From Candidatus Woesearchaeota archaeon (GTDB lineage: Archaea > Nanobdellota > Nanobdellia > Pacearchaeales > GW2011-AR1): 64,000 nucleotides of DNA. The position numbers were made by a program, and so were the translations under genes. The DNA lies in contig CAZRUG010000001.1 of the NCBI GenBank assembly GCA_964603295.1, forward strand, positions 53,210 through 117,209. Reading direction: 5' to 3'. Shown here piece by piece: positions 26,339-37,792 of the stretch; positions within the stretch are counted from its first letter, which is position 1; the number at the start of each line of letters is the position of its first letter. A model generated the notes under the pieces. It was not told where the DNA came from. It did not search any database and saw nothing but the letters and a program-made list of their open reading frames with translations.

Positions 26339-26560
26339 TTAGTTGCTGGTTGCTTCACCAACATCATTAAGGAATTCTTGTGCTTGGCCAACTAAGTTCT
26401 TGCTCCATTTCCAACATAATCCATCTCCAATTCCCACATCACAATTAATACCTGGATCATCAGAAACAATTCCTCCAACAATTCCCCAGGTTCCAAGAAT
26501 TGCAATTAAAATAACTGCAATAATTAACATTGTTTTAATTTTCATAAAATAATTACTCAA
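26339..26560 (-). CDS. Small hypothetical secreted/membrane peptide
   Basis: 73 aa; strongly hydrophobic N-terminus MKIKTMLIIAVILIAILG, two Cys. Confidence 0.35.
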   Translation of the reverse strand: MSNYFMKIKTMLIIAVILIAILGTWGIVGGIVSDDPGINCDVGIGDGLCWKWSKNLVGQAQEFLNDVGEATSN

Positions 26561-26737
26561 TAGATGTTTTTAATTGTTTTGGGCTTTTTAGAAATATGGA
26601 AATTTATTCAACACCCTATGCAAAGCAACTGTGTTGGCGAGCATAGTGATAGAGCATTGAAAATTTTCACGCACTTTGCAAAGTTTAATTTGCAACCGCA
26701 ACAAAGTGAGGACTATGGGGTTAAAATCTTTGATTTT

Positions 26738-26760
26738 GACGCCCCGACCGAGATTCGAAC
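26738..26760 (-). repeat. 23-nt perfect direct repeat of the tRNA 3' end (T-loop to discriminator plus 2 nt). att-like boundary; the surrounding sequence does not fold as a complete tRNA
   Basis: gacgccccgaccgagattcgaac is identical to 37609-37631. The upstream would-be T-stem 5' strand (GAGGG) does not pair, so this is a fragment, not a gene. Confidence 0.8.
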
Positions 26761-27093
26761 CCTCGTCTTGCGAGCCACAGTCACACGTTCTACAATTAAA
26801 TTACCATCGCCATTATGAGATTTATATTAAGTCTAAAGTTTAAAAGTTTTCTTTAATTTACAGAGATACCCCACAACATTTAAATACTCTTTTGACTTTT
26901 TTAAAAAATGATAGTTAAAACAGATAAAGCTTCCAACTGCATTGATTTCAGTTGCACGAGAATAAATCGTGAAGCTTCTTGTCGGCATAATTCGAAATAA
27001 TAGTATATTCAATTCGAAGAAATATCTTGGTATCTTTAATCAGATAAATTTAAAAAACAATTTAATCTGGCTTAAACGTTTTTGGAGGTTTAA

Positions 27094-27486
27094 ATGAAAT
27101 TAGCATTTGATAAACTAGGGGGCTTAATTCCTGTTGTAACCCAAGATTTCCGGACAAACGAAGTTTTAATGGTCGGTTTTATGAACCAAAATGCGTTTGA
27201 AGAAACTTTAAAAACATTACAAGCAACATATTGGAGTAGAAGTAAAAATCGCCTTTGGAAAAAAGGAGAAACTTCAGGTAATGTCCAGGAAGTAAAACAA
27301 ATATTAATTGATTGCGATAACGACACACTTTTGTTAAAGGTGCACCAAATAGGTGGTGCGGCGTGTCATACTGGTTATAGGTCATGTTTTTATCGAGAAA
27401 TGGATTCAAAACAAAATACAAATATAATCGGTAAAAAACTATTTATGGAGGGTGAACTTTATGGAGAAAAAAATAAGCAACACTAA
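27094..27486 (+). CDS. hisI: Phosphoribosyl-AMP cyclohydrolase
   Basis: 130 aa; HisI motifs (GLIPVVTQD, WSRSKNRLWKKGETSGN, DCDNDTLLLKV, CHTG). Confidence 0.8.
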   Translation: MKLAFDKLGGLIPVVTQDFRTNEVLMVGFMNQNAFEETLKTLQATYWSRSKNRLWKKGETSGNVQEVKQILIDCDNDTLLLKVHQIGGAACHTGYRSCFYREMDSKQNTNIIGKKLFMEGELYGEKNKQH

Positions 27487-28366
27487 GGAAAATAAAAATA
27501 AAATTGTACTTGGCCTACCAAAAGGGAGCTTGCAAGAAGCAACAGCCAAATTGTTTGAAAAAGCTGGATTTGAGATTTCCATTCCTGAAAGGTCATATTT
27601 TCCTAGCATAAATGATCCAGAAATAGAGTGTATTTTATTAAGAGCGCAAGAGATAGCCGGATATGTAGAGGCTGGTATCCTTGATGCAGGTATAACTGGT
27701 TATGATTGGATTCAGGAAACTAGGGCAGATGTCCATGAAGTTGAAGAATTTATTTATGGTAAAAAAGGCTTTAGTGCAGTAAAGTGGATTTTAGCTGTTG
27801 CAAATGAATCTCCAATAAAATCTGTTCAGGATTTGGAAGGGAAAAGAATAGCTACAGAAACAATGAATCTTACTAAAAATTTCTTAAAAGAAAAAGGAGT
27901 AAACGCTAAGGTAGAATTCTCTTGGGGGGCAACAGAAATAAAAGCTCGTGGACTTGTTGATGCGATCGTTGATGTTACTGAAACAGGATCTTCCTTAAAA
28001 GCAAATAATTTAAGGGTAATTGATACAATCTTAGAGTCAACAACTAGATTAATTGCAAATAATGATTCTATTAAAAACGAGTGGAAAAAAAATAAAATTT
28101 ATGGTCTAGCATTGCTTCTAAAAGGGGTAATGTTAGCAGAGAAGAAGGTCTTAATGATGATGAATGTAAAAAAAGAAGATGTAGAAAATGTGACAAAAGC
28201 TCTTCCAGCACTAAACACGCCAACAATAACACAACTGACTAATCCAGATTGGTTTGATGTTATCACAGTTGTAGATAAATTAACTGCAAGAGACATAACC
28301 CCTAAACTTAAAATGCTTGGTGCAAGGGATATTTTAGAAATTCCTATTAATCGTATTATAATCTAA
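27452..28366 (+). CDS. hisG: ATP phosphoribosyltransferase, long form with C-terminal regulatory domain
   Basis: 304 aa; LGLPKGSL, DAGITGYDW, TGSSLKAN and a HisG_C-like C-terminus. Confidence 0.85.
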   Translation: MNFMEKKISNTKENKNKIVLGLPKGSLQEATAKLFEKAGFEISIPERSYFPSINDPEIECILLRAQEIAGYVEAGILDAGITGYDWIQETRADVHEVEEFIYGKKGFSAVKWILAVANESPIKSVQDLEGKRIATETMNLTKNFLKEKGVNAKVEFSWGATEIKARGLVDAIVDVTETGSSLKANNLRVIDTILESTTRLIANNDSIKNEWKKNKIYGLALLLKGVMLAEKKVLMMMNVKKEDVENVTKALPALNTPTITQLTNPDWFDVITVVDKLTARDITPKLKMLGARDILEIPINRIII

Positions 28367-28979
28367 GCTGACTATACCAATTTTCAATTCTATCTTGATT
28401 AACACAATTATTATAGATTCCAAATTGTGGTTCTTTCTCGGCTAATATAGCGACCCCTGTAGATAATCCAAATAAAATCTCTTCGCCTATAACGTTGTTA
28501 GGAAGATATTGTGCGAATCCATCGGGGGTTAGAGATAAATCTGGAGCTATCTGATGAATCTTTTGGAAGGATGTATCTTTATCATAAATAAATAGAATTT
28601 TATTCTCCAGGTTAGAAACATCTTGGTTTGGATATCTTGAAACTCTTTTTTCTCCCCTTTCAATATCATTTACTCCCAGATATAAATGGGAAATCCCATT
28701 TGGTTTTAAATGATTAACACAGCCAATTCTTGCATCTCCAATTGCCCCCCTAAAAGTTAATAAAGTTAAATCAAGGGCCATTAGAGGATTCATTCCATCT
28801 TGTAGATTCTCTTGAGTTCTTTTACACATATGACCATTAAAACTAATTAAATAATCTCCACATTGTTTGTTCAAGAATCTAATACAAGAATAATTATCTA
28901 CCTCAGGGTCTTGATTTGTGGAATGATCTTCATATCCTTTTTTTGGGAAGACATTTATCTTTTTCTTCCCTGCATTCAC
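28356..28979 (-). CDS. Hypothetical protein
   Basis: 207-aa ORF; no family recognised. Confidence 0.4.
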   Translation of the reverse strand: MNAGKKKINVFPKKGYEDHSTNQDPEVDNYSCIRFLNKQCGDYLISFNGHMCKRTQENLQDGMNPLMALDLTLLTFRGAIGDARIGCVNHLKPNGISHLYLGVNDIERGEKRVSRYPNQDVSNLENKILFIYDKDTSFQKIHQIAPDLSLTPDGFAQYLPNNVIGEEILFGLSTGVAILAEKEPQFGIYNNCVNQDRIENWYSQLRL

Positions 28980-29141
28980 TCTTAGTTCTCGATAGGGGAT
29001 ACTTTTGCTTGCTAAAGTAAAAAATACAAAAGGCTTACCAAGATATTGCCCACCTCCAACAATCCTTGAAGTATATATATCTTATTATCATTATTTTAAG
29101 TCATATATTCTTGGTTTAAATTTAATAAACTTAAAAGTAGA

Positions 29142-30269
29142 TTAATTTAAGTTCATTAAATCAATATACAGCTGGGAGAATTTTTGTAGATTTTCTTTCT
29201 CGACATACTCATCCACTCTATGGCACATGTTCGCGTGTCCAGGACCAAATATAAAAACATCTCCATAATCAGAAAATAGTGCTGCCTCTGTCCACGGGAA
29301 ATGGACATTAAATTTGTCCTTAGAAAAATACTTTTTAGATAGTTCCTGAAGTTCTTTTGCAAATTTAGATTTTATATCTGACATAAAAGTTTTTCCATAG
29401 AAAGTTGCCTGAACTTTAACATTATTGTCAACTTTAGATGCCATTTCCTTAAGCTTTAGAAATTCACTATTAATATCTTCTGAAGGAATTAATCTTCTAG
29501 AGACATGAACTTTACAAAAATCTGGAACTGCGTTTGGGGCCGTTCCTCCAGACATGAAACCTATATTAAAAGAGGGTTTTCCAAATAAATCATCTGCCCC
29601 CACAGATTCTATCTCTCTTTCATATTCAATAAGTTTATTGCAAAAAAGGATTGCTTTATAGATTGCATTGTTTTCAAGATTATTTTTTAAATTAGTTTTC
29701 GAAGAATGCAAGGAGATACCTTCAAATTCAAAGAGTACATCAAGACACCCTTTTTGAGCATAAATAATCTCTTCATCAGTAGGTTCTGCCACAATAACAT
29801 TGGCACCTTTTAACTTGAACTGTTTTACTAATTCCAAACCCCCTGTTAAAGAGCCTTCTTCGTCTGCATCAAATAAAAGATAAATATCATTCTCTGGAAT
29901 GTCTTTAATGTTTAAAGCACCATTGATCATGCACGCTAATCCTGCTTTCATATCACTTGCCCCAAGACCATAAATACAAGAATTATCTTCAGATACTTTA
30001 AGTGGATTTTTAGACCAACCCTTAGCAATTGGAACTGTATCTGTATGGCCAACAAATACCAATGGTTTATTAGAACCTTTTCCTGGAATTTTTACAACAA
30101 GATTGTAAAGAGGTATATTCTCTCCACTTATTGGGTCCACTTTTTCTAAAGGAAATATAGTTGTTTCAAACCGACCAAGACGTAATTTTATATAATCAAT
30201 TATCTCTTTATTTGACTTAGTACACTGCGAGTCAATTTGAATTAAATCTTTTAAAATTTCATTTACCAT
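29142..30269 (-). CDS. M20 family metallopeptidase/deacylase (ArgE/DapE-like)
   Basis: 375 aa; metal-binding motifs GHTDTV, GASDMKAG, DADEEG. Confidence 0.7.
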   Translation of the reverse strand: MVNEILKDLIQIDSQCTKSNKEIIDYIKLRLGRFETTIFPLEKVDPISGENIPLYNLVVKIPGKGSNKPLVFVGHTDTVPIAKGWSKNPLKVSEDNSCIYGLGASDMKAGLACMINGALNIKDIPENDIYLLFDADEEGSLTGGLELVKQFKLKGANVIVAEPTDEEIIYAQKGCLDVLFEFEGISLHSSKTNLKNNLENNAIYKAILFCNKLIEYEREIESVGADDLFGKPSFNIGFMSGGTAPNAVPDFCKVHVSRRLIPSEDINSEFLKLKEMASKVDNNVKVQATFYGKTFMSDIKSKFAKELQELSKKYFSKDKFNVHFPWTEAALFSDYGDVFIFGPGHANMCHRVDEYVEKENLQKFSQLYIDLMNLN

Positions 30270-31066
30270 TTAGAAAGACCATTGTTTAAGACTTTAAAAA
30301 CATAATCCCCATCAAAATCTTTTAGATTCCACATAAACCAATTATTTCCTCTCTCAGGATCAGTAAATAATACTTCTCCATCTTTACCCTTAAAGGTTCT
30401 TCCAAATATTTTATGAACTGCTGGATTAATAGTTCGTAATATAAAATGTTTATAATTATCCCTTGCAGCATCTCTTAATTTTATTGTGGAGAGTATAGAG
30501 CCATTTCCGCCTCTTTGATAATCTTCTACCACTCCAATTTCTGCCGTATAAAAACATTTTTTATGGTTTATCCCTCTTTCTCTTAAGACTTTGTTTGCAA
30601 CAGGAAAATTCACACTCTTTGTTGGTTCACTTGGAAATGGATAGCCCCAGCTAAAGCCAACTGGAAAATCGTTCTCCGTTAAGATATAACCTTTAAAGCC
30701 AGGTAAAGAGACAGCTTCATCCATTAAAGCTACGTGATCCACATAATCTGGGTAAAATGGAATCGGATTTAATTGCTCGCCACATCCAGGACAAGTATCT
30801 AGATTATTCTCTTTACATAAAAATACTAAGCCTCTCGGAACACCTTGTTGATCTCGAGAAACACTTAAATCCGAACACGAATCTTCACAACAAGACCTTT
30901 CGGTATATTGCACCATGCAAAAAGAAGGATTCTCTCTTGAAAGTAATGCTCCAGAACAAATCATATCTTCATGCCAGGGGTGCCCTGAAAAAACCTCTTT
31001 ATATAAATCTTTTAACAAACCAACATTATAAGGTGATATTTTTTCTACAACCTTCTTTTGATTCAT
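30263..31066 (-). CDS. GNAT-like acyltransferase with Cys-rich insert
   Basis: 267 aa; motif-A-like YQRGGNGS; Cys cluster CCEDSCSD...CPGCGEQ. Confidence 0.45.
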   Translation of the reverse strand: MNQKKVVEKISPYNVGLLKDLYKEVFSGHPWHEDMICSGALLSRENPSFCMVQYTERSCCEDSCSDLSVSRDQQGVPRGLVFLCKENNLDTCPGCGEQLNPIPFYPDYVDHVALMDEAVSLPGFKGYILTENDFPVGFSWGYPFPSEPTKSVNFPVANKVLRERGINHKKCFYTAEIGVVEDYQRGGNGSILSTIKLRDAARDNYKHFILRTINPAVHKIFGRTFKGKDGEVLFTDPERGNNWFMWNLKDFDGDYVFKVLNNGLSKW

Positions 31067-31122
31067 ATAAATCTTTAGAAAAATATCATTTATAATTATT
31101 TGGTTTATATAAAATATACTTT

Positions 31123-31998
31123 CTAGTTTATATTTTTAACACCCTCAAATTCACTTAATACTTTTCTTTTTAATTGATCTGCAATTTCTTTGTTTTTAAT
31201 TAAGACCAATTCAATCTCAGTATCTTTCTTTAAGACATTCTTTATAAATGAAGGTATGTCTACTTCTGCTGGAAATGAATGATTTGAATAAAGCTTCTTT
31301 ATATCATCTGCTAATTTCTTTGGGAGTTTAACTTGCATAATTGTATCTCCAAATACACCTATGTCTGTTTCAGATTTCTCGTCTGACAACATAAAGTTCA
31401 CGCCTATTTGTTTATAAAATTTTTCAGACCATTTGTCTAAGGAAAAAGAATTTCTTACAATCATATAATGGTTTACGTTCTTTTCTCTTGCTCTGTCTAA
31501 TTCTGAATATTCTAATTCAGGATAAACTAAAAGCCACCAACAATGTGCTCCATCCCAAATAGTTATGTCTCCTTTCTTCTCAAGGTTTTTATAATAATTA
31601 TCTTTAATTTTTATCCACATCTTATCTAAGTCAAGTAAGTTCTTGAATTTCAGCGTCGTTGAATTACTTTCGATTTTTGTTTCAATAACTCCTTCGTGAA
31701 AGGGTATCAGGCTTTTCCCATTGTAATTTGTTAAAATATATTCAGAAAAATTTTTAATCCTTTCAGCCCATTCAATATTTAGAAGATATTTATTTCCTGT
31801 CTTGGATATAACCCCCTCATCAAAAAGTTCATTTAATGATTTATAAACAGATTGATAAGTGCAATTACAGGAGTATTTATTAATGCATCGGGTATAGGTC
31901 TCTTTAATTGACAAAGGCCATTCAGCAAGGAGAATTTGCACGATTATATCTTTCACTCTCTTTGTTTTGTTTGCCTCTGGAAGACTTATGATAAACAC
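31123..31998 (-). CDS. Hypothetical protein with N-terminal winged-helix-like region
   Basis: 291-aa ORF; no catalytic motifs recognised. Confidence 0.4.
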   Translation of the reverse strand: MFIISLPEANKTKRVKDIIVQILLAEWPLSIKETYTRCINKYSCNCTYQSVYKSLNELFDEGVISKTGNKYLLNIEWAERIKNFSEYILTNYNGKSLIPFHEGVIETKIESNSTTLKFKNLLDLDKMWIKIKDNYYKNLEKKGDITIWDGAHCWWLLVYPELEYSELDRAREKNVNHYMIVRNSFSLDKWSEKFYKQIGVNFMLSDEKSETDIGVFGDTIMQVKLPKKLADDIKKLYSNHSFPAEVDIPSFIKNVLKKDTEIELVLIKNKEIADQLKRKVLSEFEGVKNIN

Positions 31999-32099
31999 AA
32001 AAATATATAATTAAACCAATATATAAACTTTTTGTTAAACTATTTGGTTTACAAACAATCAACCGATATTATATAAGACATATTAAACATTGTTTATGT

Positions 32100-33206
32100 A
32101 TGCAGGAATACAAAGAGGCTATAAAACAATTCTATGATTACTGTAAAAAAGAAAAATATCATAACATTGGCTATCCAGAGAATGCAGATTTTGATTATTC
32201 TGAATTAAAAGATTTTTTAGATTTCTCTTTGAATAATGTTGGAGATCCATTTAAGGATTCTACTTATAAATTAAACTCTCTAAAATTTGAAAAAGAAGTT
32301 CTTGAATTTTTTATGGATTTATTCAAAATAAGTCGCGAAGACGGATGGGGCTATGTCACCACGGGCGGAACTGAGGGTAATCTTTATGGGGTTTATGTTG
32401 CAAGAGAACTCTATCCAGATTCAATACTCTATTATTCTGAGGATGCACATTATAGTGTTGACAAAATAGCGAGAATACTTCGTATGGATAAGATAAAAAT
32501 TAATTCTTTATCTAATGGAGAGATTGATTATAATGATCTAAAAATAAATCTTGAGGAAAACAAAGAGAAGGTACCGATTATATTTGCTAATATTGGTACA
32601 ACAATGAAAGGGGCTATTGATAATCTCGATAAAATAAATCAAGTTCTTGATGAGCTTTCAATAACTAAAAAGTATATTCATTGTGATGCAGCATTAAGTG
32701 GAATGATTCTTCCATTCTTCCCTGAGGAGAATCTTAATTTTGCAAAAGGTTTAGATAGTGTGGCTATAAGTGGCCATAAATTTATTGGCTCTCCAATCCC
32801 ATGCGGAATAGTGATAACAAAGAAAGATTATGTTAATAGGATATCAAAGGAAATTGATTACATAAAAACAATTGATAATACCATAACGGGATCAAGAAAT
32901 GGTTTGACTCCATTAATACTTTGGTCTGCGATAAACAAATTAAAAGAAGATGGATTTTATGAGTTATCTTTTAATTGCATTCAAAAAGCAGATTATTTTT
33001 ATAAAAAATTAAATGACGCGGGAATAAATGCATGGAGAAATAAAAACTCTATAACAATATTCTTTGAGAATCCAAGTCAAGAGCTATGTAAAAAATGGTG
33101 TCTCGCATCAAATGATAAAATCGCACATGTCATTACAACGCCCCATGTATCCTACAAAAGATTAAATACATTAATTGAAGAAATTTGCAATGGAGTGGAA
33201 AAATAA
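32100..33206 (+). CDS. hdc: PLP-dependent histidine decarboxylase (group II decarboxylase, bacterial Hdc type)
   Basis: 368 aa. Long stretches match enterobacterial HDC from memory: NIGYPENADFDYSEL, GWGYVTTGGTEGN, YYSEDAHYSVDKIARIL, NGEIDY, PIIFANIGTT, DAALSGMILPF, GHKFIGSPIPCGIV (PLP-Lys), AWRNKNSIT, AHVITTPH. Confidence 0.85.
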   Translation: MQEYKEAIKQFYDYCKKEKYHNIGYPENADFDYSELKDFLDFSLNNVGDPFKDSTYKLNSLKFEKEVLEFFMDLFKISREDGWGYVTTGGTEGNLYGVYVARELYPDSILYYSEDAHYSVDKIARILRMDKIKINSLSNGEIDYNDLKINLEENKEKVPIIFANIGTTMKGAIDNLDKINQVLDELSITKKYIHCDAALSGMILPFFPEENLNFAKGLDSVAISGHKFIGSPIPCGIVITKKDYVNRISKEIDYIKTIDNTITGSRNGLTPLILWSAINKLKEDGFYELSFNCIQKADYFYKKLNDAGINAWRNKNSITIFFENPSQELCKKWCLASNDKIAHVITTPHVSYKRLNTLIEEICNGVEK

Positions 33207-33207
33207 A

Positions 33208-33759
33208 ATGGATAATCTTCCTCCCTTGAGAGAAGTTTTAAAATCTTTACCTAGAACCCTCAGTGAACTAACTGAATTAGAATCTATTTTAAGACCGCGT
33301 GGATGTTCCACAGAAGGTTTTATGGGGAAAGATGAAAGACTTGTTGAGATTATTGTAAAAGATTATTTTACTCTAAAGAGATTAGGTTTAACCTATAATT
33401 ATATTGCTAACCGACTTGATGAATTGTTTGATATTAATGGGGGCGAGATCGGTGATTTTAAATTTTGTTTTGATATGACTTGTGGAGTTCAATATTGCCC
33501 TTGGCCAGATACAGAAACATGTAAGGAAAGTATTCTCTATGTTATGCCAAGAAATGGAAAACCTCATTTTAAACGCGAAGAATTTTTGAAAAACAAAAGA
33601 GATGGAAAATTAAAAATAATCTCGGGGCTATTGCCCCACCTAATTAGAGATCATTATTTCTTTGAAGGTTTAAAGACAAACTATCGGGTTGATCCAGAAG
33701 AGATGTATTCTCTTTTTAATCCCACAAATGAATTAATTATTTGGCCTAAACGCAATTAA
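33208..33759 (+). CDS. Hypothetical Cys-containing protein (start placed at MDNLPPL just after the hdc stop)
   Basis: ORF 33175-33759 overlaps the hdc end; internal start with upstream A-rich region; motif CGVQYCPWPD. Confidence 0.4.
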   Translation: MDNLPPLREVLKSLPRTLSELTELESILRPRGCSTEGFMGKDERLVEIIVKDYFTLKRLGLTYNYIANRLDELFDINGGEIGDFKFCFDMTCGVQYCPWPDTETCKESILYVMPRNGKPHFKREEFLKNKRDGKLKIISGLLPHLIRDHYFFEGLKTNYRVDPEEMYSLFNPTNELIIWPKRN

Positions 33760-34563
33760 TGCTGAGTTGAAAATCCCAAAAGAATGATCTCCTGCAAAAC
33801 CAATTTTTTCTAAAGAAACATCAAAGCCATTCTCTCTTAGAAAGGCTACGCGATCAATATCAATTAGCCTACAATAAAGATTATGTAGCGTATAATAAAG
33901 TGTTTTAGGTTTATTTGCAGACCCAGATAAATACTTAATTTTATCGGAGATTGACAAAAGTTCTCTAGAACGATTCCCTAATTCATTACTCTGAGGATAT
34001 TTTATAAACTCTGGGTTAATTTTTGCATAACAACAAGGAATTAAGAAAAGGCCATTACTTTTTTGCTTAGCTGTTTGAACTATCTTATCCGCTATGCTTC
34101 CACATGTATGCAAACCAATGATAAGATCATAATCATATTCAGTAGATGAATTGAATACATCATCACAAATGAAGGTAAGATTAGGCAATAGATTTTGTTC
34201 TTTACATTTTTTTATCAATGACTTGTTATAATCAACACCAGTTACAATAATTTCTGGATTCTTAGAGGCAATTAATCTTGAAAGAGTTCCATTACCACAA
34301 CCAAATTCTAAGATAGTTTGAGCCTCATTAAATTTACTACTTATCATACAAGCCATGCTTGAATATTGTCTTTCCTTCCTGATTCTTTTAGGAGAATTAA
34401 AGGTTAATGAAGAATCTTGCACCCCCCCTCCGAGATAGAAACTCTCTTCAAGCTCACTTAAAGTTTTCTTAGAATTGGACAGATTTAATAATTCATTATA
34501 CACAAAATCAAAATATTCTAGAGAATAATTAATCATCTCTAAAAAGTGTATTATAAACTGCAC
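33733..34563 (-). CDS. Class I SAM-dependent methyltransferase
   Basis: 276 aa; motif I ILEFGCGNG, motif II/III GVDYN...DLIIGLH. Confidence 0.65.
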   Translation of the reverse strand: MQFIIHFLEMINYSLEYFDFVYNELLNLSNSKKTLSELEESFYLGGGVQDSSLTFNSPKRIRKERQYSSMACMISSKFNEAQTILEFGCGNGTLSRLIASKNPEIIVTGVDYNKSLIKKCKEQNLLPNLTFICDDVFNSSTEYDYDLIIGLHTCGSIADKIVQTAKQKSNGLFLIPCCYAKINPEFIKYPQSNELGNRSRELLSISDKIKYLSGSANKPKTLYYTLHNLYCRLIDIDRVAFLRENGFDVSLEKIGFAGDHSFGIFNSALIAFRPNN

Positions 34564-36073
34564 TAACTGGGACAGACGTTTGAGTTCCTGTAGCTAAATC
34601 CTTAACCATTACAGCTCCTTGAGCAAGTTCATTTTCACCAATAAAACCAACATAAGGAATTCCAGATTTATTTGCGTAGTCTACTGCTTTTTTCGCTGAT
34701 ACCCCCTGAAGATTGATATCTGTTCTAATTCCCTGATCCCTCATATCTTCAGCAATCTTTAGTGTAGAGAGGATGTTTTCCTGACCAATAGGAATAAGGT
34801 ATAATTGTCTTCTAGTGGAAGGTATTTCAGAATTACGTTTAATCAATGAAGCTAATCTCTCCAAACCAAATGAGAATCCAACAGCAGGAATTTTTTCTCC
34901 TTGTCCTCTGTAATCCCCAATCATATCATCAAAACGTCCACCTGCAAGTATAGCCGAAGATAAAATATCTTTATTCTTAAGAAAGACTTCTATTGTTGTC
35001 CCAGTATAATAATCTAACCCTCTCGCTAAGGATGGATTAAAAACAACTGAAGAAAAACCCATTGAGTTGGCATAATCAAATATCTGACTAACCTCCCTGA
35101 GACCTTCAGCACTTATCGGACTTTTAAGAGCTTTTTCAAGAAGAGATACTTTCTGTTGGTTTGAACCTTCTACAGAAACTAAATCTAGTATTTTACTTAC
35201 AGAAGAGTCAGTTAGTAACCTTTCTCCTGAATACCTAAATGTATCTAAGAAAGAAAACACTTCATCCGAGCCAGGCAAGGAATGTAAAGACCTTTTCAAA
35301 TATTCATAACCACTTGATCCAATCTCAGAGACTAATCTCGTTTTCATATCTTCATCCCCAAGGGAAGGAAGACCTTCTTCTTTGATTCCGCCATATAAAT
35401 CAGTTAAAATATTATTTGACAACACTTTTGGTTCGTCGAAGAAAGATAATTCATATAATTGATTCTTAACACCATTAAGACCAATTTTATCCATTTTATC
35501 AAGAGTGGATATTGTCCTTAAGCGAGCATTTAATGGAACCTCTGCAATATCCATAATTCCTTCAAGGACTTTTCTATTATTTATATTAACCTCGATATCT
35601 CCAAGACCTAGTTCACCAAATGCTCTTTGGGCAAGAGCCAATAATTCGGCTTCTGCAGTCATATCAGGTACTCCAACAATATCTGCATCACATTGAGTAA
35701 AAATTCTATATCTTCCCTGACCTGGATTTACTGGACCATCTCTAAAAACCTCTCCAATTGCATATCTCTTAAATGGGATTCTTACTGTATTCTGGAATGT
35801 TGATAAAAATCTAGCTAGGGGAACTGTTTGATCAAATCTCAAAGCGAGCCCGTTATTTCCCCGATCTTGAACTTGATAAACTTCTTTTTGAATCTCTCCC
35901 CCCCCCTTAAATTGAACCGTATTTAACCTCTCAAATAAAGGAGTTTCTAGTCTGTCATAACCATATAATTCAAAAATCTTTGTTAATGTATCACGTACTT
36001 TAGCTCTTGCAATAGCATTCTTACCATGCCAATCACGAACCCCTTTTGCAGGAAAAAACTTTGGTTTAGCCAT
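34529..36073 (-). CDS. hisS: Histidyl-tRNA synthetase (class II aaRS, catalytic)
   Basis: 514 aa; motif 2 RYAIGEVFRDG...GRYRIFTQCDADIVG; HisRS motif AGGRFDDM with the Arg; C-terminal anticodon-binding-like domain. Confidence 0.8.
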   Translation of the reverse strand: MAKPKFFPAKGVRDWHGKNAIARAKVRDTLTKIFELYGYDRLETPLFERLNTVQFKGGGEIQKEVYQVQDRGNNGLALRFDQTVPLARFLSTFQNTVRIPFKRYAIGEVFRDGPVNPGQGRYRIFTQCDADIVGVPDMTAEAELLALAQRAFGELGLGDIEVNINNRKVLEGIMDIAEVPLNARLRTISTLDKMDKIGLNGVKNQLYELSFFDEPKVLSNNILTDLYGGIKEEGLPSLGDEDMKTRLVSEIGSSGYEYLKRSLHSLPGSDEVFSFLDTFRYSGERLLTDSSVSKILDLVSVEGSNQQKVSLLEKALKSPISAEGLREVSQIFDYANSMGFSSVVFNPSLARGLDYYTGTTIEVFLKNKDILSSAILAGGRFDDMIGDYRGQGEKIPAVGFSFGLERLASLIKRNSEIPSTRRQLYLIPIGQENILSTLKIAEDMRDQGIRTDINLQGVSAKKAVDYANKSGIPYVGFIGENELAQGAVMVKDLATGTQTSVPVSAVYNTLFRDD

Positions 36074-36180
36074 ATTTAAAATATGGGCTTTATCTTTAAA
36101 AAGATATGTATAATTGACTAGATAAACGAATTAGTTTAGAAGATAAAAATATTTAAACTAGTATTTATTCTACAATTAAA

Positions 36181-37314
36181 ATGAAAACAGACTTACCAAA
36201 AGGATTCAAAGATTATACTGGAGAACAAGCTGAAAAACGAGAGTTTATTAAAGAGGTTTTAAAGCAGACTTTTGAAAGATACGGATTCCAACCAGCGGAA
36301 ACACCAGTTGTAGAATACGAAGAATTTGTTAGAGGGGAAAACCCAAATGACGAAGCTGTTTCAGACATTTTTAAACTAGAAGACAGAGGAAAAAGAAAAC
36401 TTGCACTTCGTTATGAGCATACATTTTCTTTAAAACGAGTAATGCAAAATAAAAAAATTCCTTACAAAAGATATGCAATAGGTCCTGTTTTTAGAGACGA
36501 ACCTGTAACAGGAAATAGAACACGCCAGTTCACACAATGCGACATTGACATTCTCGGCTCAACACTAAAAGACGACGCTGAAATACTCGCTGTAATAAAC
36601 TCTGTATTAAAAGCACTTCAAATAGAAGCAACAATATTTGTAAATAACAGAAGAATAATGAATGAAATATTTGAGACCCAAGGAATTGTGACTAACAAGG
36701 ATCAGATAATCCGAGAGATTGACAAGCTTGATAAGTTAAGTGAAAAAGAAGTAAAAGAAAATCTAAAGAAGTTTAAAGCAGAGAACATATTAGATATTTT
36801 CAAAAAACCAATCAAGGAATTTGAACAATACGAATCTTTCAAGGAAGTAAAAGAACTCTTAGATTATTGCAAAGCTTATGGAGTTAAAATAGAATTCCAG
36901 CCAACACTTGCAAGAGGTTTATCTTATTACACTGGGACAGTCTTTGAAATCAAAACAAAGCAAATCAGAGAAACAATATTCGGTGGAGGAAGCTACACAT
37001 TTAATGGAGTTCAGGGAGTTGGTTTTGGAGTAAGCTTAGAAAGATTAGGAATTGTAACTAACATCAGGATTGATTTAGAAAAATACTTAATTGTTTCATT
37101 AAATCAAGATAAACAAGCAATAAAAATCGCAAATCAGTTTAGGGAAGCAGGTAAAAATGTATCAATGTATTATGGAAAGCCAAGCAAAGCACTTGAATAT
37201 GCAAATTCATATGGGATCAATAAAGTAATATTTATCGGAGAAGAGGAAGTCAAACTTAAACAATTTAAAGTTAGAATTATGTCCTCTGGAAAAGAAAGCG
37301 TTCTAAGATTTTAA
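36181..37314 (+). CDS. HisRS paralog lacking the catalytic Arg (HisZ-like or other non-canonical HisRS-like protein)
   Basis: 377 aa; motif 2 RYAIGPVFRDE...RTRQFTQCDIDILG conserved, but GGGSYT replaces GGGRYD; C-terminal VIFIGEEE anticodon-binding-like segment. Confidence 0.6.
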   Translation: MKTDLPKGFKDYTGEQAEKREFIKEVLKQTFERYGFQPAETPVVEYEEFVRGENPNDEAVSDIFKLEDRGKRKLALRYEHTFSLKRVMQNKKIPYKRYAIGPVFRDEPVTGNRTRQFTQCDIDILGSTLKDDAEILAVINSVLKALQIEATIFVNNRRIMNEIFETQGIVTNKDQIIREIDKLDKLSEKEVKENLKKFKAENILDIFKKPIKEFEQYESFKEVKELLDYCKAYGVKIEFQPTLARGLSYYTGTVFEIKTKQIRETIFGGGSYTFNGVQGVGFGVSLERLGIVTNIRIDLEKYLIVSLNQDKQAIKIANQFREAGKNVSMYYGKPSKALEYANSYGINKVIFIGEEEVKLKQFKVRIMSSGKESVLRF

Positions 37315-37610: not shown

Positions 37611-37792
37611 CGCCCCGACCGAGATTCGAACTCGGGTCACCGCCTAACTCCAAAGTGGGTTGCATTGAGATGCATAGACTTTCCCTCTCACCGAGGTTCC
37701 ATCACCCCTCTTTTCCTCCTTCAGGCATAAGAATATGATATTCCCTTAGGATTTTGAGAGGGCGGCATTCTTGGCCTCTGAACTATCGGGGC
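37611..37792 (-). tRNA. Intron-containing tRNA. Tentatively tRNA-Glu(CUC) with a ~109-nt intron at the canonical 37/38 position; no CCA encoded
   Basis: Manual fold: acceptor GCCCCGA/TCGGGGC, D-arm GTTC-AGAGGCCAA-GAAT, anticodon stem CCGCC/GGCGG, loop CTCTCA|A, T-arm CCGAG-TTCGAAT-CTCGG, discriminator G. 73 nt of exon plus 109 nt of intron equals the 182-nt span exactly. Confidence 0.5.

Follow-up and report, generated by a model that had tools for sequence, protein, structure and literature searches.

A bacterial-type histidine decarboxylase gene in a histidine island of a DPANN archaeon, probably an old acquisition

The window, by which we mean the whole 64-kb stretch of DNA that was analysed, contains on the forward strand at 32100..33206 an intact open reading frame of 368 amino acids with an ATG start, hdc, which is predicted to encode a group II PLP-dependent L-histidine decarboxylase. 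A first-pass annotation, made from the letters alone, had placed a bacterial-type histidine decarboxylase here, and both the reading frame and the motifs that it quoted were found exactly in the translation, which includes AISGHKFIGSPIPCGIVITKK, NAWRNKNSITIFFENPSQELCKKWCLASNDKIAHVITTPH and AISGHKFIGSPIPCGIV and has the C-terminal signature AWRNKNSIT...AHVITT. The NCBIfam equivalog model for histidine decarboxylase, NF002748, matches the hdc product with 531.2 bits (E=1.1e-159, cutoff 305), and the match is full-length (residues 3-364 on positions 6-370 of the 382 in the profile). The Pfam match is Pyridoxal_deC. The best solved structures are those of the Photobacterium histidine decarboxylase, 7ERV and 7ERU; 7ERV (E=4.6e-126) is collinear with residues 6-363 and is 54.5% identical to the hdc product in the trimmed alignment. 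Together, the NF002748, Pfam and 7ERV matches exclude a chance resemblance.

MfnA is the usual archaeal representative of the group II decarboxylase superfamily. Its model, TIGR03812, gives the hdc product 137.9 bits, below the cutoff of 299.4. In the PDB ranking, 7ERV and 7ERU are followed by plant serine and alanine decarboxylases (E~1e-99 to 1e-102) and methionine decarboxylase, and MfnA comes only after these (E~5e-20). These scores rule out MfnA as the origin of hdc and agree with the first-pass annotation, which had called the protein Hdc-like rather than MfnA-like. By its sequence, the hdc product belongs to the bacterial (gammaproteobacterial, 'YPE') type of group II PLP histidine decarboxylase, which is another subfamily than MfnA. 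As an enzyme its identity is ordinary, and annotation pipelines would already name the gene correctly.

The roles of the catalytic residues were mapped from AtSerDC and CsAlaDC (PMC11407765), and their conservation was scored over a family alignment of 133 sequences. The Schiff-base lysine is K227, in the SGHK (S-x-H-K) motif. H117, which stacks on PLP, D196, which pairs with N1, A198 and T168 are all present, as are the phosphate binders G90, T91, H226 and S265. Apart from T91, which is kept in 128 of the 133 homologues, every one of these residues is invariant (133/133). The catalytic tyrosine of the mobile loop is Y254 in 'EIDYIKT' (kept in 131/133), which aligns with the tyrosine of 7ERV and with Y341 of AtSerDC. 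Judged by these residues, the enzyme is catalytically intact.

Downstream of hdc lies unk194 (33190..33759, forward strand), an uncharacterised gene for a protein of 189 aa, or of 194 aa if it is read from the TTG at 33175. The two reading frames share 17 nt at the hdc stop codon, and from this arrangement the genes are probably co-transcribed. An orthologue with 49% identity stands directly after hdc in another DPANN locus (L028), and unk194 follows hdc in two of the seven DPANN loci in all. No match to unk194 was found in the three islands without hdc that we examined (L041-L043, described below). The unk194 family is large and unnamed and has conserved Cys, His and Glu residues. Its fold is confidently predicted, and comparison of this fold with solved structures gave no match.

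On the other side, and divergent from hdc, lies unk291 (31123..31998, reverse strand), a conserved island protein and putative regulator with orthologues in four other loci (L027, L028, L037 and L043). The winged-helix signal at its N-terminus is weak (HTH_45, E=0.028). In a single-sequence structural model that is otherwise poor (pLDDT 40.6), residues 15-73 adopt an H-H-H-beta-beta arrangement with pLDDT of 59-81. From the profile signal and this model, an N-terminal winged helix-turn-helix is probable. The divergent intergenic region (31999..32099) is 101 bp long, and each of the two start codons is preceded, at a distance of about 25-30 nt, by an AT-rich TATA-like box, that of hdc being ATTATATAAG at about 32068-32077. 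It also holds a perfect 8-nt inverted repeat, TAAACCAA/TTGGTTTA, at 32012-32019 and 32044-32051. We suggest that this repeat is a candidate operator between two archaeal, nearly leaderless promoters.

Two HisRS genes lie 1.3-3 kb downstream of hdc. The nearer one (34529..36073, reverse strand) encodes a second, island-specific HisRS of 514 aa with canonical motifs (RFDQT, ARGLDYY, GGRFD and GFSFGLERL) and an insertion of ~85 aa at about residues 207-289. A class I SAM methyltransferase gene (Methyltransf_32; 33733..34563, reverse strand) overlaps its start, and the two genes are kept together in L027 and in L041-L043. The other gene (36181..37314, forward strand) encodes a reduced HisRS of 377 aa with a degenerate HisB motif (GGGSYT). 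In Pacearchaeota, HisRS genes of this type are found on their own amid housekeeping genes. Over 120 homologues share at least 59% identity with the 377-aa protein. A relative with 62% identity, on a 464-kb Pacearchaeota contig (L044), is found alone among genes for ribosomal proteins, Spt4, Rpb7 and diphthamide synthesis; thus, the 377-aa HisRS is probably the housekeeping enzyme. The best PDB match for each HisRS is human cytoplasmic HisRS, which marks both as archaeal/eukaryotic-type. The tRNA beside these genes was considered as a possible tRNA-His and was rejected: it is intron-bearing, lies at 37611-37792 and reads anticodon CUC (Glu).

Before unk291, profile matches identify hisI (PRA-CH, 27094-27486) and a long-form hisG (ATP phosphoribosyltransferase, 27452-28366), both on the forward strand. 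They are followed by three genes on the reverse strand. The product of unk207 (28356..28979) is IMP-cyclohydrolase (PurO)-like, as a 53%-identical orthologue (L041:12377-13120) matches PF07826 with 30.2 bits (cutoff 28.1). The next gene (29142..30269) encodes an M20 ArgE/DapE-family deacylase/peptidase with orthologues in L037, L029, L042 and L043. The product of unk267 (30263..31066) is GNAT-like, as a 40%-identical orthologue (L043:5695-6600) of this putative acyltransferase matches Acetyltransf_1 (E=1.4e-6). Within the window, which covers 64 kb of a contig of 122.7 kb, we found no HisE, which was sought by tblastn, and no HisA, F, H, B, C or D. Across the DPANN loci, hdc recurs beside genes for HisI, HisG and HisE, HisRS, unk291, M20 and SLOG proteins, and these recurrent his-gene neighbours link hdc to histidine metabolism.

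The island is also found without hdc. Three contigs, L041-L043, were retrieved through the 514-aa HisRS alone; all three carry the same island, and hdc is absent from each of them. The order of genes in these islands is a housekeeping-type HisRS, HisI, long HisG, and then the methyltransferase with the insertion-bearing HisRS. They also carry orthologues of the M20, GNAT-like and PurO-like proteins and of unk291, plus SLOG genes, and some add a HisA/F-like barrel, HisD, a HAD phosphatase or an SSF transporter. Because the island exists without hdc, we believe that the island was there first and that hdc was inserted into it later. This island, in which two HisRS paralogues and part of the his pathway are joined by several uncharacterised proteins, is more unusual than hdc itself, and so is the unk194 family. 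It may tell us more about how DPANN archaea handle histidine, an amino acid that they are thought to scavenge.

The first-pass annotation had taken the host to be an archaeon, and the content of the window upholds this. It encodes aCPSF1 (832 bits, equivalog), archaeal PheRS alpha and beta, Rad50, a FlaI-like ATPase, the exosome subunits Rrp41 and Rrp4, SBDS, proteasome alpha and beta, RNase P p30, an archaeal CCA-adding enzyme and TrmB. The named homologues of both HisRS proteins come from Candidatus Woesearchaeota, Pacearchaeota or Nanoarchaeota. From these markers and names we place the host among the DPANN archaea, in the Pacearchaeota/Woesearchaeota group. The GC content of the window is ~30% throughout, and that of hdc is 0.304 compared with 0.29-0.36 in the neighbouring genes.

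The named members among ~6000 hdc homologues are bacterial or plant. When one genome for each GTDB species was scanned with patterns for close relatives, the 25 relatives returned were all bacterial, with 45-53% identity. A scan of metagenome contigs with the clade alignment returned eight loci, mostly high in GC and probably bacterial. The closest proteins, P0003-P0008, are metagenome sequences with 54-63% identity to the hdc product. The orthologues on six contigs (L027, L028, L029, L037, L038 and L039) lie in DNA of 29-36% GC, with archaeal EF1A and the same neighbours as in the window. In a distance-based (NJ) phylogeny, the hdc product, these six DPANN orthologues and P0009 (L040) form a clade that is sister to the gammaproteobacterial YPE histidine decarboxylases, with 179 of 200 bootstraps (90%) when the plant protein P0010 is left out. 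P0009, on a contig of 59% GC and unassigned origin, is a caveat to this clade. P0010 is a plant SDC-like protein that is unusually close to the hdc product (48.7% identity). With P0010 included and the NJ tree rooted on it, the hdc product leaves the clade and groups beside the plant sequence. We read this grouping as long-branch or compositional attraction, as the clade returns at 179/200 without P0010. Another protein, P0002 from Picochlorum, was set aside as a close relative because its very high bit score comes from a duplicated-domain gene model; its identity is 42%.

Phylogeny had been proposed with the first-pass annotation as a check on its idea of horizontal transfer, and, with the caveat of the omitted plant sequence, the NJ tree gives the predicted placement beside bacterial enzymes. 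As the family is otherwise bacterial or plant and the host is archaeal, lateral acquisition from bacteria is a reasonable reading, as is a capacity to make histamine, and this part of the idea stands. A recent event confined to this genome does not fit: with a GC of 30.4%, hdc resembles its neighbours, and its orthologues on six other DPANN contigs fall in one clade, so that the transfer was neither recent nor restricted to this genome. A single old transfer from bacteria to DPANN archaea, after which the lineage retained the gene and it spread there, is the most economical reading, although the direction and age of this event are what the sequences suggest rather than something seen directly. 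Acquisition of bacterial genes by DPANN archaea in general is well documented (PMC8204110). Full-text literature searches found no paper on histidine decarboxylase in DPANN or other archaea.

Two explanations would make hdc something other than an archaeal histidine decarboxylase gene, and both can be weighed on the evidence at hand. The hdc family is overwhelmingly bacterial, and a bacterial gene could in principle have been joined to archaeal DNA during assembly or binning. However, archaeal genes flank hdc on both sides on one contig, an independent assembly (Logan SRR11308339, L001) has the identical arrangement, the GC of hdc is that of the host, and the orthologues on six other low-GC contigs have archaeal EF1A and the genes of this island as neighbours. 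On these grounds a chimera is very unlikely, and we give artefact almost no weight. The other explanation is that the enzyme belongs to the same family but acts on serine, alanine or another small amino acid and is mislabelled as a histidine decarboxylase. In its favour, decarboxylases of plants that act on serine or alanine belong to the family (E~1e-102), and a plant SDC-like protein is as close as P0010. The third residue of a Y-P-X motif decides the substrate in these plant enzymes, with tyrosine leading to serine and phenylalanine to alanine (PMC11407765). HMMER alignments show this motif as GYPYN in AtSerDC, GYPFN in CsAlaDC, GYPES in 7ERV and GYPEN in the hdc product. The specificity position of the hdc product is thus E27, in a YPE motif and not in the YPY of plant serine decarboxylases. 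Glutamate is found at this position in 22 of the 133 homologues, and these are exactly the DPANN clade and the Photobacterium/Vibrio/Plesiomonas/Pseudomonas group. The remaining 111, which include database-named histidine decarboxylases, carry C, S, V, T or A; this variety among proteins that share the name could be taken in favour of another substrate. Against it, the hdc product has YPE, LNS and DAALSG as in the crystallised histidine decarboxylase, whereas the plant enzymes have HSR and DGALFG; it also clusters with the YPE group, and hdc is embedded among histidine genes in seven loci. A different substrate therefore seems improbable to us. Because the YPE motif is that of Photobacterium histidine decarboxylase and glutamate is confined to 22/133 homologues, histidine is the best-supported substrate, and we take L-histidine to be the likely substrate from the sequence. 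By analogy with the plant enzymes, Glu27 may contact the imidazole. Most database 'HDCs' are without the glutamate of proven histidine decarboxylases. According to the YPX survey, many bacterial proteins with the name 'histidine decarboxylase' may have a substrate other than histidine.

If the product does decarboxylate histidine, its context can still be read in several ways. Clusters of hdc, an antiporter and hisRS have been reported in Proteobacteria and Firmicutes (PMC8465708), and the two hisRS homologues within 3 kb of hdc had led the first-pass annotation to see the same linkage here. One could propose that the classical cassette for acid resistance or proton-motive force, with hdcA, the histidine/histamine antiporter and hisRS, as known in Proteobacteria, was transferred en bloc. 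The proximity of two hisRS genes is real, but the rest of the claim finds little support. Both HisRS proteins are archaeal/eukaryotic-type and the pair is present in the same island without hdc, so the hisRS pair was probably not co-transferred with hdc. In addition, none of the 25 bacterial hdc loci examined had a hisRS within 10 kb of hdc. In the 64-kb window there is no antiporter candidate, of APC type or other, and an ABC exporter and a presenilin-type peptidase are the only polytopic proteins. In about 58 kb of DPANN hdc loci, no ORF is predicted to have four or more TM segments. Transfer of a whole cassette is accordingly highly improbable. For the exchange-driven model of acid resistance or proton-motive force in general, the transporter is missing nearby.

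The absence of an export system nearby is in keeping with the idea that histamine feeds an undescribed pathway involving unk194, the island methyltransferase, the GNAT-like protein or the second HisRS, singly or together. This would parallel Pseudomonas, which uses histamine from its histidine decarboxylase as a siderophore building block and in which a YPE-type hdc (L002) stands among genes for an NRPS, an aryl-AMP ligase and isochorismate synthase. The overlap of unk194 with hdc, its recurrence in L028, the lack of a match in L041-L043 and the conserved Cys, His and Glu of its large family all speak for such a pathway. Conversely, unk194 follows hdc in just two of the seven DPANN loci, and hdc-free islands likewise carry GNAT, M20 and methyltransferase genes. 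The archaeal loci showed neither an NRPS nor a ligase that would serve histamine, and no enzyme that would use histamine was identified. We consider this pathway unlikely. We hold a related idea to be about equally doubtful, namely that hdc and unk194 are an add-on module of a DPANN-specific island that performs undescribed chemistry or regulation derived from histidine or histamine, rather than plain biosynthesis with a stray decarboxylase beside it. The core of such an island would be the insertion-bearing HisRS, translationally coupled to the methyltransferase, with HisG, HisI and the SLOG, PurO-like, M20 and GNAT proteins.

Based on these results, we propose a model in which the hdc product is a genuine dimeric L-histidine decarboxylase that forms histamine and CO2, and in which hdc was acquired long ago and domesticated in a pre-existing DPANN his island. 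We have considerable, if not complete, confidence in this model, which is built from sequence comparisons. K227 would hold PLP as an internal aldimine, with H117 stacked on the pyridine ring and D196 paired with N1. E27 of the YPE motif would sit where the choice of substrate is made in this family, and the quinonoid would receive its proton from Y254 of the mobile loop. Decarboxylation of L-histidine to histamine and CO2 would take up one proton. We propose that hdc was gained from bacteria by an ancestor within the Pacearchaeota/Woesearchaeota group, that hdc and unk194 may have been inserted together into the lineage-specific histidine island, and that hdc would by now be fully domesticated, with the GC of its host and an archaeal TATA-like promoter. 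The enzyme would act on the cytoplasmic histidine pool, outside any secretion cassette of hdc, antiporter and hisRS. Its possible roles are disposal of histidine with consumption of a proton, or supply of histamine to a downstream step. The least demanding reading is that it serves cytoplasmic histidine disposal or proton consumption under an island-wide control of histidine.

Our results extend PLP-dependent histidine decarboxylation, and potentially histamine production, to DPANN archaea. They also provide a clear case of a metabolic gene that ultra-small archaea took up from bacteria in the distant past and have retained since. In addition, they suggest that proximity of hdc and hisRS can arise independently of the bacterial cassette.

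Comparison with known systems places the locus more exactly. Like the bacterial cassettes of Klebsiella aerogenes, Shewanella and lactobacilli (PMC8465708), it has an extra hisRS near hdc. Unlike them, it is without an antiporter, and its hisRS genes are archaeal-type and probably older in the island than hdc. The pairing of hdc and hisRS is at most convergent with that of the bacterial cassette. MfnA (TIGR03812; PDB 3F9T) shares the group II PLP decarboxylase fold with the hdc product. The plant enzymes AtSerDC (8JG7) and CsAlaDC (8JIJ) share its family, fold and PLP-binding set. They differ by a tyrosine or phenylalanine at the specificity residue and by HSR and DGALFG in place of the LNS and DAALSG of histidine decarboxylases, and they add N-terminal extensions and a C-terminal zinc finger. 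The histidine decarboxylase of the Pseudomonas pseudomonine-type siderophore locus is YPE-type, falls in the sister clade with ~51% identity and is used without an antiporter, but its gene lies among NRPS, isochorismate synthase and aryl-AMP ligase genes that the archaeal loci do not have. The enzyme of Photobacterium phosphoreum (7ERU/7ERV) has another setting, as the archaeal gene has a DPANN host, a TATA-like promoter, an archaeal his island and no adjoining antiporter, and its product falls in a separate clade. The two proteins themselves are much alike: they have 368 and 374 aa, respectively, and share SGHK, the loop tyrosine, YPE and the C-terminal AWxNKNSIT...AHxITT.

The 'his island' of DPANN archaea was conserved in the window (27094-37314), in L027, another DPANN contig that carries hdc, and in the hdc-free contigs L041, L042 and L043. 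Its core runs in the order housekeeping-type HisRS, HisI, long HisG, and then a class I methyltransferase overlapping a second HisRS that bears an insertion; M20, GNAT-like, PurO-like, wHTH-like and SLOG genes accompany this core. Copies of the island exist both with and without hdc. A HisA/F-like barrel was restricted to some copies (L041 and L042), as was HisD (L042), and neither HisE, HisB, HisC nor HisH was seen in these copies. In the roughly 530 bp upstream of hisI (window 26560-27090), we found no convincing ORF and no Rfam match at the gathering threshold.

The second HisRS of the window is a protein of 514 aa (34529-36073, minus strand), with canonical catalytic motifs and an insertion of about 85 aa at residues ~207-289. 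Its gene shares a 35-nt overlap with that of the Methyltransf_32 methyltransferase (33733-34563, minus strand), and this pair was kept in four further loci. PGAP labels proteins of this kind as either HisRS or HisZ. The window also encodes a reduced HisRS (36181-37314, plus strand) of the Pacearchaeota type, which is 375-377 aa long and has a counterpart in L044, a 464-kb Pacearchaeota contig. Its histidine motifs read ARGLSYY and GGGSYT, compared with the canonical ARGLDYY and GGRYD, and its score of 273.6 bits is slightly under the hisS equivalog cutoff of 286.75 bits. Despite the altered motifs and the low score, this type appears to be the stand-alone HisRS of the 464-kb contig. Nearby lies a 182-nt tRNA gene (37611-37792, minus strand) with a CUC (Glu) anticodon, whose anticodon loop is interrupted by a long intron. 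It was detected by Rfam (44.6 bits) only under permissive filters; neither ARAGORN nor an Rfam gathering-threshold pass over the whole window detected it.

We surveyed the YPX specificity position in 133 family members (among them P0011-P0120 and the proteins of loci L004-L026), most of them labelled, or inferable as, 'histidine decarboxylase'. Glutamate occupied it in only 22 of the 133. Cys, Ser, Val, Thr or Ala stood there in Dehalococcoidia, Bacteroidota, Planctomycetota and other groups, whose enzymes may act on a substrate other than histidine.

Among the eukaryotic relatives, the serine decarboxylase-like protein of Glycine max (P0010) matched the window HDC at 48.7%, whereas its similarity to the remaining prokaryotic homologues sampled was at most 44.6%, and in neighbour-joining trees that included it the window HDC was drawn out of its own clade. 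This pattern may reflect a compositional artefact, or it may offer a clue to which prokaryotic proteins the plant family is related to. The bit score of the Picochlorum protein (P0002) is inflated because the domain is duplicated in its 615-aa gene model, which holds one and a half tandem HDC/SDC-like copies with a YPG motif.

In Pseudomonas fildesensis, genes for isochorismate synthase and for aryl-AMP ligase/PCP immediately precede hdc, and an NRPS gene adjoins it; this locus (L002, 2441-11149) looks like a pseudomonine-type siderophore cluster.
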